DNA of 4,511 nucleotides from a virus (taxonomy: Duplodnaviria; Heunggongvirae; Uroviricota; Caudoviricetes). Location: the IMG/VR virus record IMGVR_UViG_2713896778_000015, one strand, 5' to 3'. Positions within the stretch are counted from its first letter, which is position 1; each line of letters opens with the position of its first letter. The translations under genes were made by a program, and so were the position numbers. Shown here one piece after another: positions 1 through 4,218 of the stretch. The notes under the pieces were generated by a model that made no database searches, had not been told where the DNA came from, and worked only from the letters and a program-made list of their open reading frames with translations.

Positions 1-56
1 TCCGCAAGGTCTGACGGCGACGCCGCCCTGACAACATCATAATGTTTAAATGTCAT
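1..56 (-). CDS. N-terminal fragment of an unknown protein (MTFKHYDVVRAASPSDLA...), continuing beyond the window start
   Basis: ATG at 56..54 on the minus strand, preceded by GGGAGG 4 nt upstream (a little short). Frame stays open for 18 codons to the window edge. Too short for the ORF track. No family recognised. Confidence 0.35.
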   Translation of the reverse strand, partial: MTFKHYDVVRAASPSDLA

Positions 57-98
57 TATTCCTCCCGGCCGGGATAGTGTATTAAATCAGATATGGAG

Positions 99-145
99 TG
101 GGCTGTAGTCCGGAAGCCTGAATGACACACGGGGACTACAGCCCA
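99..145. repeat. 13-bp perfect inverted repeat (TGGGCTGTAGTCC / GGACTACAGCCCA) around a 21-nt spacer
   Basis: Arms at 99-111 and 133-145 are exact reverse complements, read directly. Lies in the presumed 5' leader of the minus-strand ORF that starts at 56. Not followed by a T-tract on either strand, so not a terminator. Confidence 0.7.
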
Positions 146-240
146 AGAAATGAAAAAAGGCCACGCAGTTGCGCAGCCTGATAAACCCTGGTTAAAATCC
201 ACACGATAACAACACAACAATATCAGTATCTCATGCTATT

Positions 241-265
241 GCCCGAACCCATTCGGGCATTTTTT
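241..265 (+). terminator. Intrinsic terminator-like hairpin, plus-strand orientation
   Basis: GCCCGAA-CCCA-TTCGGGC stem-loop (241-258) followed by A-TTTTTT (259-265). On the minus strand the same hairpin is not followed by a U-run. Confidence 0.5.
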
Positions 266-277
266 ACCCATAAAAAA

Positions 278-327
278 NNNNNNNNNNNNNNNNNNNNNNN
301 NNNNNNNNNNNNNNNNNNNNNNNNNNN
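278..327. other. Run of 50 N (assembly gap or masked sequence)
   Basis: Literal N characters at 278-327. Confidence 0.95.
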
Positions 328-528
328 GCATGTTTGCATGCACATTCTTTTTCTTGCATGGTGCCGGGTGCCTCCCGGTGAATTCAGTACCAGCACCTGA
401 ATCCGCGATTATCCCATATACCTACTCACTGATTGCCCCTCCGCACAGGGGGATTCACCATGCCAGTTTCTTTTAACAAACTCCCCGCAAACCAGACAAC
501 AGTCAACCGCCTGAATTGTGAGACATTT

Positions 529-554
529 AAAAAAAAGGCCCGCAAAAGCGAGCC
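529..554 (-). terminator. Intrinsic terminator just downstream of the tRNA-like gene
   Basis: On the minus strand: GGCTCGC-TTTT-GCGGGCC hairpin (one mismatch) at 554..537, followed by a run of 8 T (536..529). It begins 15 nt after the tRNA-like 3' end. Confidence 0.5.
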
Positions 555-568
555 AGGGAAAATAAGTG

Positions 569-644
569 TGGCGCGTTGTACTGGATTCGAACCAGCGACC
601 TGGCGATTATGCGTCGCTCGCTCTCACCACTGAGCTAAAGGGCC
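569..644 (-). tRNA. tRNA-like gene, 76 nt, CAU anticodon, Ile2/Met-type body; acceptor stem does not pair and position 33 is G, so probably a chimeric or pseudo tRNA
   Basis: Minus-strand sequence GGCCCTTTAGCTCAGTGGTGAGAGCGAGCGACGCATAATCGCCAGGTCGCTGGTTCGAATCCAGTACAACGCGCCA. D-arm GCTC/AGTGGTGA/GAGC and T-arm GCTGG/TTCGAAT/CCAGT are canonical. Anticodon loop is CGCATAA. The 5' strand GGCCCTT pairs with the 3' strand ACAACGC only at the two terminal positions. Confidence 0.55.
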
Positions 645-653
645 GGGAGCAGA

Positions 654-682
654 ATAATAACGGTCCGTAATTAATTCCGCAA
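654..682 (-). promoter_or_regulatory. Candidate sigma70 promoter for the tRNA-like gene
   Basis: Minus strand: -35 TTGCGG (682..677), 17-nt spacer, -10 TATTAT (659..654). The -10 ends 9 nt upstream of the tRNA 5' end. The -35 is weak. Confidence 0.3.
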
Positions 683-707
683 TAAAAAACCCGCTCAATG
701 GCGGGTT
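681..707 (-). terminator. Intrinsic terminator ending the upstream (Rha-like gene) transcript
   Basis: Minus strand: AACCCGC-CATTGA-GCGGGTT hairpin (707..688) followed by TTTTTTATT. Its T-tract overlaps the proposed tRNA promoter -35. Confidence 0.5.
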
Positions 708-943
708 CTGGTAAAGTTCATGCGCTTGGTTCGCCTCGCGATACAGCTTTGCGAAGCGTACCGGAATTGAAGCAGTTTATGTGCAAAAATGCAAGAACTT
801 TTTTAAAGCTGCATCAACCTTTCCACCAGTTTATCTCTGCGAACAACAAACCAACCATTGGCTCTCGCCAGTTCCAGCCATGACTCAAGGGAAATAACAA
901 TATCATCATCCCGTAACTGAATTGTGGAAACAGTGACACCACC

Positions 944-1362
944 TCACTGATAACAGAGAACTCGCGTGTCGTAACTTTTCTGGCATGCAACTGGCGCTGA
1001 CGGATCCTTTTGACTGAAATAGCAGTCTTCCAGTTTTTCGAACACATCCCACGCCTGATCGGTTTCGAGCATTTTTGCGTGGCGGGCTGCTCCGCGTTCT
1101 GTCCAGAGGATAAGGGAGCGGGCTTTGGGAGAGATGGGATTTTGTGAGTAGTTTAAAGCTACCCGCAATTCTTTAAGGTCATTACCAACAACTTTGAAAA
1201 NNNNNNNNNNNNNNNNNNNNNNNNNNNNNNNNNNNNNNNNNNNNNNNNNNGAATACGCACCGGCTCAGTGCCGTAAAGCTGCGCCAAAAGTTCGGTGGTA
1301 ATAACAGGAATCCGGTTATGGGTGATCGGGGAGAGAGTTTCAACAGAAATTTGAGTTGTCAT
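944..1362 (-). CDS. Phage regulatory protein, Rha/antirepressor-like (tentative), interrupted by the N-run at 1201-1250
   Basis: ATG at 1362..1360 with GAGGG 7 nt upstream. N-terminus MTTQISVETLSPITHNRIPVITTELLAQLYGTEPVRI. After the N-run the frame of ORF 944..1168 is open back to the gap (FKVVGNDLKELRVALNYSQNPISPKARSLILWTERGAARHAKMLETDQAWDVFEKLEDCYF...). The two track ORFs are one gene whose frame is broken by the arbitrary gap length. Family call is from motif recall only. Confidence 0.45.
1201..1250. other. Run of 50 N (assembly gap or masked sequence) inside a gene
   Basis: Literal N characters at 1201-1250; ORF frames on either side differ. Confidence 0.95.
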
Positions 1363-1375
1363 AATGACGCCCTCT

Positions 1376-1443
1376 GGTGGTTTCTAAACTATCACCACCG
1401 TCAGGTTCCAATCATCGGGTGGTGAGACGCACAGGGTTGGAAC
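1376..1443 (-). promoter_or_regulatory. Structured 5' leader of the Rha-like gene: interleaved complementary segments (pseudoknot-capable or alternative hairpins) next to the ribosome-binding site
   Basis: Plus-strand coordinates: GGTGGT 1376-1381, TCACCACC 1392-1399, GTTCCAA 1405-1411, GGTGGTGA 1418-1425, TTGGAAC 1437-1443. 1392-1399 can pair with either 1418-1425 or 1376-1381; 1405-1411 pairs with 1437-1443. The Shine-Dalgarno (complement of 1366-1370) lies directly 3' of the ACCACC segment on the mRNA. Confidence 0.3.
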
Positions 1444-1520
1444 TACCGGGAAACCGACCGGCGAGCTTTTCAGCTCCCCCATGCGCCCCACCATAATTCA
1501 GATGTGCGCGTGCATACGAC

Positions 1521-1545
1521 AATAAAAAACACGCTCGCGGCGTGT
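1521..1545 (-). terminator. Intrinsic terminator downstream of the Q-like gene (tR'-like)
   Basis: Minus strand: ACACGC-CGCGA-GCGTGT hairpin (1545..1529) followed by TTTTTATT. On the plus strand the hairpin is followed by GTCTGTCGCGG, so it is minus-oriented. Confidence 0.6.
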
Positions 1546-1606
1546 GTCTGTCGCGGTCTCTATCCGGGGTTCCAATCCCGACGCCAGATTTTGCTGGCGC
1601 GTGAGG

Positions 1607-1636
1607 AATATAGCCCCGGATAACAGATTGAGTCAA
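1607..1636 (-). promoter_or_regulatory. Candidate late promoter (PR'-like) overlapping the stop codon of the Q-like gene
   Basis: Minus strand: -35 TTGACT (1636..1631), 18-nt spacer, -10 TATATT (1612..1607). Predicted start near 1600, about 75 nt upstream of the terminator at 1521-1545. A 6-bp hairpin CGCCAG/CTGGCG (1582-1599) sits in the initial transcribed region. Confidence 0.45.
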
Positions 1637-2187
1637 CAGACGGTTTTTAGATCCCCGGAAGAGAATGCATCACGCATCGGTAGATAGAGCATATATTCAG
1701 CAAGATTTAGCCATACATCTACCCGACTGCAGCACGTCCGAAAACACCACTCAGGGTGTGAATCATTCAGCAATTCAGCCATTTTTCGCTTAGTCATCCC
1801 CCTCCCTTCATATCGTTGCCGGAGGATACAAATCAATCCTGGGTGTTCTGCCAGCACTTCACTAATCACCCGATCAATGCATAACGCCTCTGCATCAGTA
1901 CAATGCACCAGCCAGCTTTTTTGCTTGCCGTTGATCATATCCCGCAAAAAAGCCTCAAGTTCAGGTTTGTCCAAACCTGCTTTTTTCATCCTCCGGAGCG
2001 CCTCGTTAATTGCCGTTTTTGTCAGCTTTTTAGAGGTCAGCAACTGGTTGAACATATTTCCCGTCTTACCGCCGCCAATATACGACCAGCGCCCCCACAT
2101 GCGCAGTTTTCCCTGAATCCAGACACTTTCCAGCGTGGTGAGACGAAGGCGTTCCCCGCTTTTGCCTGTATTTGTTGGGTAAATCAT
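1633..2187 (-). CDS. Putative late-gene antiterminator Q-like protein (184 aa), assigned mainly by position
   Basis: ATG at 2187..2185 overlaps the upstream stop as ATGA. The track start at 2307 would overlap the YbcO-like gene in another frame. Sits directly after the DUF1367/DUF1364 nin-type genes and directly before a promoter plus short terminator. Cys pattern HCTDAEALC...CFRTCC could be a metal site. Sequence family not verified. Confidence 0.55.
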   Translation of the reverse strand: MIYPTNTGKSGERLRLTTLESVWIQGKLRMWGRWSYIGGGKTGNMFNQLLTSKKLTKTAINEALRRMKKAGLDKPELEAFLRDMINGKQKSWLVHCTDAEALCIDRVISEVLAEHPGLICILRQRYEGRGMTKRKMAELLNDSHPEWCFRTCCSRVDVWLNLAEYMLYLPMRDAFSSGDLKTVC

Positions 2188-2474
2188 AAATAACCTTCCT
2201 TTCTCCAGATTTCTTGTGTGCGAAAAACACCTTCTGCATGCATCAGGCGCAATTCTTCTTTGGTGTAATCGCTGGTTTTTACCCGCCCGTCGATTAAATC
2301 GTGGCATGAGCTACAGGCAATTGCCGCCTGCATATCGTGTGGTTTTGTCGCTGTTCCACACGTCCCCGCCAGCCTGTAATGCGCCAGCACGGACGTTTCG
2401 GGATTGTGATTGCAGTAGCCAGGAATTCTGACTGTACACATCTGACCTTTTGCCGCTTTACGTAAATCCACCAT
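2184..2474 (-). CDS. DUF1364 family phage protein, YbcO-like (96 aa)
   Basis: MVDLRKAAKGQMCTVRIPGYCNHNPETSVLAHYRLAGTCGT...ACSSCHDLID closely matches my recollection of E. coli DLP12 YbcO, including the conserved Cys/His pattern. ATG at 2474..2472 overlaps the upstream stop as TAATG. Confidence 0.8.
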   Translation of the reverse strand: MVDLRKAAKGQMCTVRIPGYCNHNPETSVLAHYRLAGTCGTATKPHDMQAAIACSSCHDLIDGRVKTSDYTKEELRLMHAEGVFRTQEIWRKEGYL

Positions 2475-3073
2475 TACGCAAACTCCAGCAGCTGCGCGGC
2501 CACATTTTCGACTTCCTCCGGAGAGGAAAATTTACGGAACAGGATCCAGTTCCACAGCACATTCAGTACAGATTTATAAACCTGCTGAAACTCGGTTTCG
2601 TCCATGTTCGCAAATGCGATAGATTTTGCCCTGCGCCCACGACTACCATCAGGATAAATATGCTCGGTGTAAAATCCTGCCTGAATGGTTACCCACTCGC
2701 GGAAAGCCTCAAACGACTTTAGCAATGCTGTATCTCGGGTTCTGCGTGTCGCAACTGTATTCAGATATTGCTCTGCGGCTTCGCTCAGAGCTGGCGTATG
2801 TTCCCGGCCTACTGATTCGCACAGATAATCAACGAAACCGGACACCAGTTTTCGCTCGCGAGGAGTGATCGCCCCACCGACCGGAGTCCAGTAATCGAAT
2901 CCGAGTTGCAGAAGTTTGAAAAAACGCTTATGGAATGCGTAGTTACGAACGCGCTTGAAATCAGCGTGTATCCACTCGCCTATTTTGATTTGATGCAGAA
3001 AATCACAACTCTCCGGCGTCGCCGGGAGAAGTAATCCGGAAGAGGTTTGTTTGACCAGTTGTATATGCGCCAT
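2474..3073 (-). CDS. DUF1367-like phage nin-region protein (199 aa)
   Basis: ATG at 3073..3071 with GGAGA 7 nt upstream; the track start at 3085 is a TTG. About 200 aa, immediately upstream of and translationally coupled to the DUF1364 gene. Family assignment from recall of a conserved phage protein. Confidence 0.7.
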   Translation of the reverse strand: MAHIQLVKQTSSGLLLPATPESCDFLHQIKIGEWIHADFKRVRNYAFHKRFFKLLQLGFDYWTPVGGAITPRERKLVSGFVDYLCESVGREHTPALSEAAEQYLNTVATRRTRDTALLKSFEAFREWVTIQAGFYTEHIYPDGSRGRRAKSIAFANMDETEFQQVYKSVLNVLWNWILFRKFSSPEEVENVAAQLLEFA

Positions 3074-3132
3074 TGCTGTCTCCAATGGCGCTGTAGGTTG
3101 CCAGTTGTTCAGGCTGGCTTACGAATTATAAC

Positions 3133-3306
3133 TCATTCGCGAACTACCTTGAAACCGAGCCTTTCAAGGTATTCAATGAATGCCTCGATAGATAAAATTA
3201 CATGATCATCAGGGATTAACGTTGTGTAGACAACTTTCCCATTCTCAACGCGCACAGCATAGAGGCCATTTTCACTAAAAATTTCACGCAATTCTTCGAT
3301 TTTCAT
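3133..3306 (-). CDS. Small hypothetical protein, 57 aa (MKIEELREIFSENGLYAVRVENGKVVYTTLIPDDHVILSIEAFIEYLERLGFKVVRE)
   Basis: ATG at 3306..3304 with AAGGA 8 nt upstream. It is the C-terminal part of track ORF 3133..3420, whose listed start is a TTG. Has its own promoter-like signal and follows a terminator. No family recognised. Confidence 0.45.
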   Translation of the reverse strand: MKIEELREIFSENGLYAVRVENGKVVYTTLIPDDHVILSIEAFIEYLERLGFKVVRE

Positions 3307-3386
3307 CTTCAGAATCCTTCCAGATAAATAGCTCTTCCCCTTCGGGGTCCATCCCTCTTCTCCCTGCGCGCTACTTAAGAGCCTCG

Positions 3387-3414
3387 ATTCTAGCCGTGAA
3401 GACATACCGATCAA
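3387..3414 (-). promoter_or_regulatory. Candidate sigma70 promoter for the 57-aa ORF
   Basis: Minus strand: -35 TTGATC (3414..3409), 16-nt spacer, -10 TAGAAT (3392..3387). Gives a leader of roughly 75 nt. Confidence 0.4.
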
Positions 3415-3493
3415 CAGCAATAAGCCACCTGAATAACAGAATCAGCCAACCACATCAGTACAACCAGATGCATCATACTCACCGAAAATAAAC

Positions 3494-3534: not shown

Positions 3535-4020
3535 TTAGTTTTGCTGTTCCATTTTAAACTTGATAGTTTCATACAAAACAATAGTTGCGCCTGTTTTACA
3601 TAATTCCCGGCTGTCATACGCGCGAGACCAATAACACAACCAGTTCTCGAGATCTTCTCGAGTATAGGTTTTGCAGGCCAGTCCCTCTGCCATTTCCACG
3701 ATTTCATCGCCTGGTGCTGTTAATTCATAGCCATTCAACAACAAGAAGACGTAACCAGCCATCATAGCTGTTCGTTTGTTCGCATTAGCAAACGGATGAT
3801 TCTGAATCAGACTTTCAATCAATACCGATGCCAGTACAAACATGTCATTAGTCTGTTCATACCATCGAACCATGCTGGGACGGGCCTGAGAAGAACTTAA
3901 GTTATCTGGACTCAGAACACCAACGAGCTCATCTGGCGTCTGTAATTCAATTAGGGAACGATTGATTTCAACAAGATCATCAACCGTAAGGTAATGCACT
4001 CCTTCAACAATCTCAGCCAT
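3535..4020 (-). CDS. Doc (death-on-curing) / Fic-family toxin-like protein, 161 aa
   Basis: Contains HPFANANKRTAMMAG, matching the Doc-type motif H-x-F-x-(D/N)-(A/G)-N-K-R rather than the Fic HPFx(D/E)GNGR. ATG at 4020..4018; the track start at 4029 is a TTG. Begins 18 nt after the stop of a small upstream ORF. Confidence 0.85.
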   Translation of the reverse strand: MAEIVEGVHYLTVDDLVEINRSLIELQTPDELVGVLSPDNLSSSQARPSMVRWYEQTNDMFVLASVLIESLIQNHPFANANKRTAMMAGYVFLLLNGYELTAPGDEIVEMAEGLACKTYTREDLENWLCYWSRAYDSRELCKTGATIVLYETIKFKMEQQN

Positions 4021-4038
4021 AGAGCACAATACCCATCA

Positions 4039-4218
4039 TTACACTTTTGAAAGTTCTTCCATTGCCTTCTCGTAACGAGAAAAACCGAAATCGAAAGCAT
4101 TTTTCACCTGCTCACGATGAGTGCAATTTTCATCGATAGCCGGGCGCGGAGCTGCCACAACGCTTTTATCGCGAGGGGGAATAGTCAATCGCGGGTGTTT
4201 TTTTAGTGCGTAGCTCAT
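4039..4218 (-). CDS. Small ORF upstream of the Doc-like gene, 59 aa; candidate antitoxin/partner, not in the ORF track
   Basis: ATG at 4218..4216 with AAGGGGGG 6 nt upstream and an in-frame TAA 15 nt further upstream. Translation MSYALKKHPRLTIPPRDKSVVAAPRPAIDENCTHREQVKNAFDFGFSRYEKAMEELSKV. Does not resemble Phd as far as I can recall. Confidence 0.45.
   Translation of the reverse strand: MSYALKKHPRLTIPPRDKSVVAAPRPAIDENCTHREQVKNAFDFGFSRYEKAMEELSKV

Follow-up and report, generated by a model that had tools for sequence, protein, structure and literature searches.

The agvB gene and an adjoining RNA stem-loop in the nanS-p late leader of Stx-type phages

At positions 99-265 of a prophage segment whose genes are all located on the minus strand, a perfect inverted repeat and a plus-strand terminator lie next to each other. 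The segment, referred to below as the window, is the whole stretch of 4,511 nucleotides that was analyzed (IMGVR_UViG_2713896778_000015). It represents the late regulatory region of a lambdoid prophage and is 100% identical to the corresponding sequence of E. coli O121:H19 (NZ_CP022407.1). The plus-strand terminator and the inverted repeat are unrelated neighbors in the interval that extends from the moron slot to the first conserved late gene. One half of the finding is known biology (the sRNA AgvB) and the other half is a modest new observation (a hairpin of the late RNA). The locus is framed by the following features:

1-56, minus strand: start of nanS-p with the ATG at 56-54; the first 18 codons lie inside the window and the ORF runs off the window.
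328-492, minus strand: STnc100-like sRNA (Rfam, 111.8 bits against a cut-off of 47), convergent partner of AgvB.
1636-1607, minus strand: PR′-like promoter, TTGACT-18-TATATT.

The stretch from 99 to 265 is untranslated and is bordered by the moron slot, which lies downstream of PR′, on one side and by nanS-p, the first conserved late gene, on the other; in Stx phages the homologous stretch is flanked by stxB and nanS-p. A gene for a Q-like antiterminator (DUF1133) is located on the minus strand of the window. Homologues of nanS-p are annotated as DUF6645 protein, SASA esterase or yjhS, and the full-length NanS-p encoded at the identical locus contains DUF1737, a SASA sialate O-acetylesterase domain and DUF6645 (Pfam). 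Holin and lysis genes are found downstream of nanS-p at this identical locus.

For the plus-strand half of the region, the original prediction had described a clean intrinsic terminator and had considered antisense or convergent transcription or a small plus-strand RNA ending near 265. The terminator was recovered by the terminator scan, and the RNA could be identified as AgvB:

204-265, plus strand: AgvB (EcOnc01), an anti-GcvB sRNA (Rfam RF02702).
213-219, plus strand: CACAACA, a GcvB-target motif within AgvB's variable 5′ part.
240-259, plus strand: 8-bp stem of the intrinsic AgvB terminator, followed by T6 at 260-265.

The match to RF02702 reaches 96.5 bits (gathering score 56, E-value 1.4e-18) and covers model positions 1-62 of 62, every base being that of the consensus. 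The gene also has the position described for the family, downstream of PR′ at the moron slot and upstream of nanS-p; its orientation is antisense with respect to the late operon, and it converges with STnc100. AgvB was discovered by cross-linking of RNA to Hfq in strain O157 Sakai (Tree et al., 2014; PMC4104026). It was described there as an Hfq-dependent RNA of about 60 nt with the GcvB R1 target motif CACAACA, whose 5′ end in the strain used was determined to be a primary start by RLM-RACE. A sequence identical to 204-265 is expressed in O157 Sakai and relieves GcvB repression; AgvB relieves the repression of dppA by GcvB and helps growth in bovine rectal mucus (PMC4104026). Mechanistically, AgvB sequesters the R1 seed of GcvB; its transcription starts at a deduced sigma-70 promoter and runs antisense to that of the late operon. 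With the AgvB/AsxR/EcOnc03 family (PMC4104026; RF02702, RF02703) the window copy shares consensus identity, the CACAACA motif, a 3′ part of about 42 nt that is conserved, the terminator and the slot, and no difference was detectable; the promoter/terminator overlap and the adjoining hairpin described below are absent from PMC4104026. In 933W-type phages, AsxR occupies the same slot according to an alignment with the AsxR sequence. Already known are thus AgvB as such, the terminator at its end, the orientation antisense to the late operon and the convergent arrangement with a second sRNA.

The terminator of the STnc100-like sRNA is concealed in the window by a run of N at 278-327 and becomes visible in the identical locus (L001, 5278-5297), where the minus sense reads GCCCCUCUCCGGAGGGGC followed by a U-run. 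The terminators of STnc100 and AgvB abut tail to tail. The run of 50 N is not length-preserving, the identical genomes having about 17-20 nt at this place.

Two further features, both absent from the original prediction, lie between AgvB and the inverted repeat:

169-174 and 193-198, plus strand: AgvB promoter deduced from the sequence, with the -35 box TTGCGC, an 18-nt spacer and the -10 box TAAAAT.
179-158, minus strand, T-run to about 148: intrinsic terminator, AGGCUGCGC-AACU-GCGUGGCCU followed by U6CAUUU, with nine pairs, six of them GC.

The start at 204 fits both the spacing of the deduced promoter and the published 5′ end of AgvB. A conserved -35/-10 pair is thus present at the right distance from the 5′ end, contrary to the earlier statement that no convincing plus-strand promoter could be found. 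The promoter scan missed it because TTGCGC matches just three of the six consensus positions. In POCJ13-type phages the layout is kept as TTGCGC-18-TATTAT, although the plus-strand sRNA differs. The 19-codon plus-strand ORF at 150-209, formerly considered the best of its strand, does exist in the window but is not conserved, its ATG being absent in every other clade aligned (CATTTC changed to CGTATT or CGAATT).

The minus-strand terminator at 179-148 has a folding energy of -14.9 kcal/mol (z -4.4) and is present in all homologues with an invariant core, TGCGCAACTG. Even in the POCJ13 type, in which the stem is rebuilt as CCUUGC/GUAAGG, the TGCGCAACTG block is retained. The -35 box of agvB sits in the top of this stem-loop, which explains the invariance of the core in all homologues. 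From the sequence it is deduced that one DNA stretch serves as terminator of the late strand and as promoter of the plus strand. The U-tract of the terminator corresponds to an A-tract at -46 to -51 of the AgvB promoter and may represent an UP-like element. It is virtually certain that 204-265 on the plus strand is the agvB gene and that it is transcribed from TTGCGC-18-TAAAAT, with the -35 box within the late-strand terminator. The only addition to the knowledge on AgvB is the location of this promoter inside the late-strand terminator, by which the same 30 bp are used compactly on two strands.

The second half of the region is formed by the inverted repeat, which is followed by a smaller structure close to the start of nanS-p:

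99-145, minus strand: RNA stem-loop in the leader of the nanS-p late transcript, with a 13-bp stem (145-133 paired with 111-99) and a pyrimidine-rich loop of 21 nt.
63-74, minus strand: small predicted hairpin UCCC-GGCC-GGGA, overlapping the first four bases of the Shine-Dalgarno sequence GGGAGG.

The arms at 99-111 and 133-145 are complementary at 13 of 13 positions, with 21 nt between them. Among 3000 shuffled windows, 0.17% contained a perfect inverted repeat that reached 13 bp or more around a loop of 3-40 nt, in agreement with the earlier view that the repeat is too perfect to be due to chance. As minus-strand RNA, 99-145 folds with -27.3 kcal/mol (z -5.4), as plus-strand RNA with -24.4 kcal/mol. 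Likewise, the view that the repeat is a terminator on neither strand was confirmed: the stem is followed by CUCCAUAUC on the minus and by AGAAAUGAAA on the plus strand, neither with a U- or T-tract, the terminator scan reports no terminator there, and a U-tract after the stem is absent in every sequence family. The search against Rfam 15 (E ≤ 1, permissive filters) gave no match overlapping 99-179 on either strand, and in the papers searched (including searches for nanS-p leader, terminator and locus tags) no description of the hairpin was found. An Hfq-bound sRNA at the hairpin was considered and rejected, since the Hfq CRAC peaks of Tree et al. (Table S2; PMC4104026), from cultures that are not described as induced, lack a site there.

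In minus sense, the leader consists of the anti-agvB sequence (265-204), the terminator (179-148), the hairpin (145-99), a C/U-rich spacer of 24 nt, the small Shine-Dalgarno hairpin, the Shine-Dalgarno sequence and the ATG. The hairpin begins 2-3 nt past the tail of the terminator and about 12 nt past its core U-run. The original prediction had placed the repeat about 45 nt upstream of the ribosome-binding site of the ORF starting at 56; the upstream position is correct, whereas the distance was approximate and amounts to 32 nt from the end of the hairpin (99) to GGGAGG (66-61). The small hairpin, in the general form UCCC-GNCC-GGGA, is part of the predicted minimum-energy fold in 17 of 19 distinct leaders, and the Sh7888/Oki type keeps it with another loop (GGAAAG). 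The predicted mean unpaired probability of the Shine-Dalgarno sequence is 0.2-0.4 in most leaders. The pyrimidine content is 64% in the leader versus 48% in the window, and it reaches 67-79% in the hairpin loops of all four families. The spacer 3′ of the hairpin often contains CUCCUUA, the same sequence as the 16S rRNA 3′ end. Two further candidates within the leader were discarded: an extra helix, UCAUUUCU/GGA-AAUGA, is confined to the window's own clade, and a minus-strand ORF of 54 codons (54 aa; 220-56, TTG start), which runs through anti-agvB, terminator and hairpin and overlaps the nanS-p start in TAATG, is not conserved in frame because of indels in the loop and the U-tract.

Whether the inverted repeat is used as DNA or as RNA was decided by comparison with its homologues. 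Of 5426 complete E. coli genomes, 1603 carry sequences homologous to 1-277, and one genome frequently has them in more than one prophage. They were also found in 347 phage records, the majority of which belong to Stx1- and Stx2-converting phages. The sample analyzed comprises 39 homologous loci from annotated records and viral contigs, which yielded 27 distinct leaders and 16 distinct hairpins; about 30 variants of the 1610 matching E. coli/Shigella records were examined. A first pattern scan of the viral contigs had given 120 loci, mostly chance matches, which were filtered by BLAST and then used as negative background for the model search. The consensus by RNAalifold on the full-leader alignment (A2) was uninformative because MAFFT had mis-registered the 5′ arm of the POCJ13 type, and a hairpin-only alignment (A3) was used in its place.

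The conservation of the repeat in related prophages, which the original prediction had named as a check, was observed throughout: the hairpin is present in 39 of 39 homologous loci, from Stx1, Stx2 and non-Stx lambdoid phages, and all 16 distinct hairpins form the same minus-strand stem with -15 to -27 kcal/mol. Over 13 pairs in 16 variants, 93.2% of the cells are paired, compared with 26-50% in slid controls. Both sides are changed in four of the 13 pairs (UA to CG, AU to GC, GC to UG and CG to UA), and neither the observed pairing nor the covariation score was reached by any of 500 shuffles, although such shuffle-based statistics overstate independence, the hairpin sequences being related through descent and recombination. 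In the L127 type, a one-base insertion turns the U.U mismatch of its clade into an A-U pair with a bulged U. Pairing is kept across about 25% sequence divergence, while the loop drifts in sequence and in length (20 to 28 nt). Weakened stems occur as well, all in the middle of the stem: a U.U mismatch in the whole 933W clade, 2x2 internal loops in L036 and L072, and a 3x3 internal loop in L150. In a search of 1.14 Mb with a covariance model built from the variants (R1), each homologous locus gave exactly one copy, located upstream of nanS-p in every case, and no copy was detected outside these loci; the hairpin is therefore not a dispersed repeat family of the REP or MITE kind, and several copies in one genome are due to several lambdoid prophages.

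The variants also distinguish the strands. Among the paired cells are 26 G-U cells, which would be A.C on the plus strand. The POCJ13 hairpin folds with -19.1 kcal/mol in minus sense versus -5.8 kcal/mol in plus sense, the Oki hairpin with -23.8 versus -14.7 kcal/mol, and the POCJ13 arms are symmetric at 8 of 13 positions as DNA but paired at 13 of 13 as minus-strand RNA. As the arms diverge as DNA and stay paired as minus-strand RNA, a DNA operator is very improbable and the structure is assigned to the late transcript. The comparison of homologues makes it very probable that 99-145 represents a selected RNA structure of the minus strand, and its description as a conserved, apparently undescribed RNA stem-loop in the nanS-p leader of Stx-type phages is well supported.

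Concerning its function, the preferred explanation is that the hairpin, an autonomous, stable stem-loop of the Q-antiterminated late transcript, would stand in the way of nucleases or determine processing where the stx/sRNA module borders on the nanS-p-lysis genes. It could shield the downstream mRNA against 5′-end-dependent attack by RNase E or the upstream RNA against 3′ exonucleases. Such protection would matter once the long late transcript is cut, e.g., at the perfect duplex of AgvB and late RNA 60 nt upstream, and RNase III might also cleave at the hairpin itself. Of the functions considered, a barrier or processing role appears to be the likeliest because the hairpin is autonomous and stable, has no U-tract and is located in a long untranslated spacer of a very long operon RNA after a terminator, 60 nt downstream of the segment forming the duplex with an abundant antisense sRNA. 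Points against it are the stems weakened in natural variants, the loci that have nanS-p but no hairpin, and the lack of an Hfq CRAC peak at this site. Judged by position and structure, this role is proposed tentatively, its chances being somewhat less than even; for the explanation as a whole, i.e., the agvB gene together with a late-RNA hairpin as barrier or processing element, the chances are about even.

When the hairpin was deleted in silico, the predicted accessibility of the Shine-Dalgarno sequence and the AUG was unchanged or nearly so in 11 leaders, with the exception of the Oki type (Shine-Dalgarno sequence, 0.05 to 0.35), which points to a self-contained barrier or module rather than to a switch. 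Pairing of STnc100 and AgvB with the leader was not significant (p = 0.09 and 0.29, respectively, in a duplex folding that is unreliable for RNAs of this length). Between the terminator and the hairpin, neither the scan nor inspection gave an acceptable -10/-35 pair for a minus-strand promoter, and the hairpin as 5′-terminal stem-loop of a separate nanS-p mRNA was rejected for this reason.

Known RNA elements offer partial parallels to a barrier or processing element. Stem-loops that stabilize polycistronic mRNAs include REP hairpins, the 5′ stem-loop of ompA and the hairpins left at T7 RNase III sites. The window hairpin resembles them in its autonomy and stability, in the lack of a U-tract, in its location within a long operon RNA at a spacer that is not translated, and in the conservation of pairing over sequence, but differs in being single-copy rather than a repeat family and in its large pyrimidine-rich loop. 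In lambda, RNase III processing sites are reportedly located in the Q-dependent late leader RNA. The likeness consists in the place of a structured element, in a leader that is not translated and extends from the late-promoter region to the first conserved late gene, and lambda has a remnant of the same terminator and a 10-bp hairpin at the corresponding place, whereas the sequences are unrelated to the window hairpin. Classical RNase III substrates have two helical turns, and a 13-bp stem with a large loop is shorter; the window hairpin has 13 bp plus partial pairing in the loop, and a central mismatch is tolerated in variants.

An effect on translation would be the main alternative to such a barrier. 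In this explanation, the hairpin is a translational operator whose loop (CUUCCGG, UGUCAU) pairs with the Shine-Dalgarno sequence and the AUG of nanS-p, as a pseudoknot or in an alternative fold, and thereby gates translation, with polarity on the lysis genes. Leaders that sequester the ribosome-binding site are known from the lambda N leader and the sdi structure of the S gene, and the window leader resembles them in the distance of 32 nt to the Shine-Dalgarno sequence and in pyrimidine-rich single-stranded parts complementary to it. The loop region 110-127 is 72% complementary to 51-68, and the loop-RBS duplexes, with -13 to -21 kcal/mol, are among the top 2-7% of genomic segments of the same length in three of four families, all of which have pyrimidine-rich loops. 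An apparent covariation, UGUCAU/AUGACA in the window versus UGCCAU/AUGGCA in 933W, would fit as well, but it is broken in L127, L073, L128, L015 and L007, where UGCCAU occurs with AUGACA, and the Shine-Dalgarno sequence and CUUCCGG hardly vary, so that they provide nothing to covary. Moreover, the duplexes are no better than those of shuffled loops (p 0.02-0.64), and for the Oki, Sh7888 and POCJ13 types they do not exceed the chance level. Their advantage over the genomic background is modest, the POCJ13-type loop ranking at 24% of it. In nested folding, removal of the hairpin in silico left the predicted accessibility of the Shine-Dalgarno sequence essentially unchanged. With the loop-RBS tests negative or at chance level, the window hairpin differs from the known sequestering leaders; sequestration of the ribosome-binding site by the hairpin is not supported by the broken covariation, the shuffle-level duplexes and the unchanged accessibility, and a translational operator is considered unlikely.

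More generally, it is rather improbable that the hairpin is a cis-regulatory switch of Shiga-toxin and related phages, be it by a loop-RBS pseudoknot, a bound protein or regulated cleavage. If it were, it would set the translation or survival of the late Q-dependent RNA beyond the stx/sRNA module. It would in this way adjust nanS-p and, through coupling or polarity, also the moment at which the holin brings about lysis and the toxin is released.

A back-up of silencing was considered as a further alternative, in which the hairpin and a C-rich, G-poor leader would stop leak-through past the terminator 179-148 in lysogens by pausing or Rho loading, so that nanS-p and holin would be kept off until the Q-modified polymerase arrives. 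This would fit the arrangement, as the hairpin directly follows the terminator in every homologue and the lysis genes are located downstream of it, and also the composition of the leader, which is pyrimidine-rich and has about twice as much C as G in three of the five leaders counted. On the other hand, the excess of C over G fails in the Sh7888 and POCJ13 leaders, no family has a U-tract after the stem, and Rho does not bind stable hairpins, which leaves this explanation with a small chance.

The behavior of the terminator and the hairpin as a module counts in favor of the preferred explanation. The two co-occur or are jointly absent: loci with iraM upstream lack both and have a different nanS-p Shine-Dalgarno sequence, and the hairpin is hence not essential for the expression of nanS-p. 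In lambda-2B8, E. albertii and related loci, a homologous terminator with another loop and without sRNA promoter is followed by the hairpin CUGCC-ACU-GGCAG. The same hairpin follows in L134/L135 (about 1010-1075, minus strand), L138 and L140, which have no anti-sRNA and carry the terminator GGCUGCGC-AUGG-GCGCGGCC with U8 upstream of nanS-p or S. In phage lambda (L148, 596-665), a remnant of the terminator precedes a hairpin of 10 bp, GGCAGGAGGU/ACCUCCUGCC. The succession of a terminator and a hairpin may be the general layout of this leader.

Finally, the palindrome might have no function of its own and might be handed down by descent as part of a phage module that recombines, perhaps marking a recombination boundary. 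This would be consistent with the carriers all being related lambdoid phages, with the existence of weakened stems and with the mosaic structure of the region, in which L136 has another sRNA and L150 and L008 have local rearrangements. However, over about 25% divergence the loop drifts, whereas the pairing persists thanks to G-U pairs, to changes on both sides of a pair and to an insertion that compensates, and a palindrome without function is accordingly held to be improbable. By far the weakest alternative is a DNA-level site, i.e., an operator at which a dimeric protein would regulate the AgvB promoter, located 60-105 bp upstream of the AgvB start, or another DNA signal: a perfect 13-bp palindrome upstream of a plus-strand promoter would suit it, and the original prediction had proposed a comparison of the arms with phage operators, but the half-site varies between clades (CTGTAGTCC, CTGCGGTTC, CTGTTTTTC), the arm changes are G-U-compatible and compensatory, and the POCJ13 palindrome exists fully in the RNA of the minus strand and not in the DNA, so that it is very improbable.

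Two loci of this comparison show additional particularities. In L136 (Escherichia sp. MOD1-EC7003, 940-1180), a hairpin and terminator of the window type are combined with an EcOnc03-like anti-sRNA instead of AgvB, a combination that indicates recombination between the variable 5′ region of the sRNA and the terminator-hairpin module. Phage 06-3462 (L008; locus 1-584 and 609-661) carries an insertion of an IS3-family element (IS1203/IS629), which is located about 25 nt downstream of the hairpin, before the Shine-Dalgarno sequence of nanS-p, and separates the hairpin from nanS-p.

Many pathogenic E. coli have the leader with the hairpin, a short stretch with stx (or other morons) and the anti-sRNA genes on one side and with nanS-p and the lysis cassette on the other. 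Should the late RNA depend on the hairpin for its processing, stability or translation, the hairpin would matter for how strongly Shiga toxin, sialate esterase and lysis genes are expressed relative to each other; as a mere generic nuclease barrier, it would be an ordinary element.

Besides the leader, further elements of the prophage could be assigned in the window:

569-639, minus strand: tRNA-like sequence (Rfam, 37.3 bits; tRNA-Met according to PGAP in an identical genome, no call by ARAGORN).
944-1362, minus strand: ORF6N antirepressor-like ORF, interrupted by the second N-run of the window; in RefSeq a truncated pseudogene with missing C-terminus.
1498-1415, minus strand: C4-like antisense RNA (71 bits).
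1600-1524, minus strand: IsrK-like RNA with tR′ (77.5 bits).
1613-1561, minus strand: c4 a1b1 target sites near the PR′-like promoter.
3535-4218, minus strand: predicted Doc/Fic-type toxin ORF (164 aa), preceded by an antitoxin-like ORF (59 aa).

The tRNA-like sequence at 569-639 may be degenerate. The elements at 1415-1636, together with the ORF at 944-1362, all on the minus strand, resemble the c4-ant immunity module of P1 and the isrK-anrP locus of Salmonella Gifsy-1. In the source genome, hokD is located just past the end of the window.
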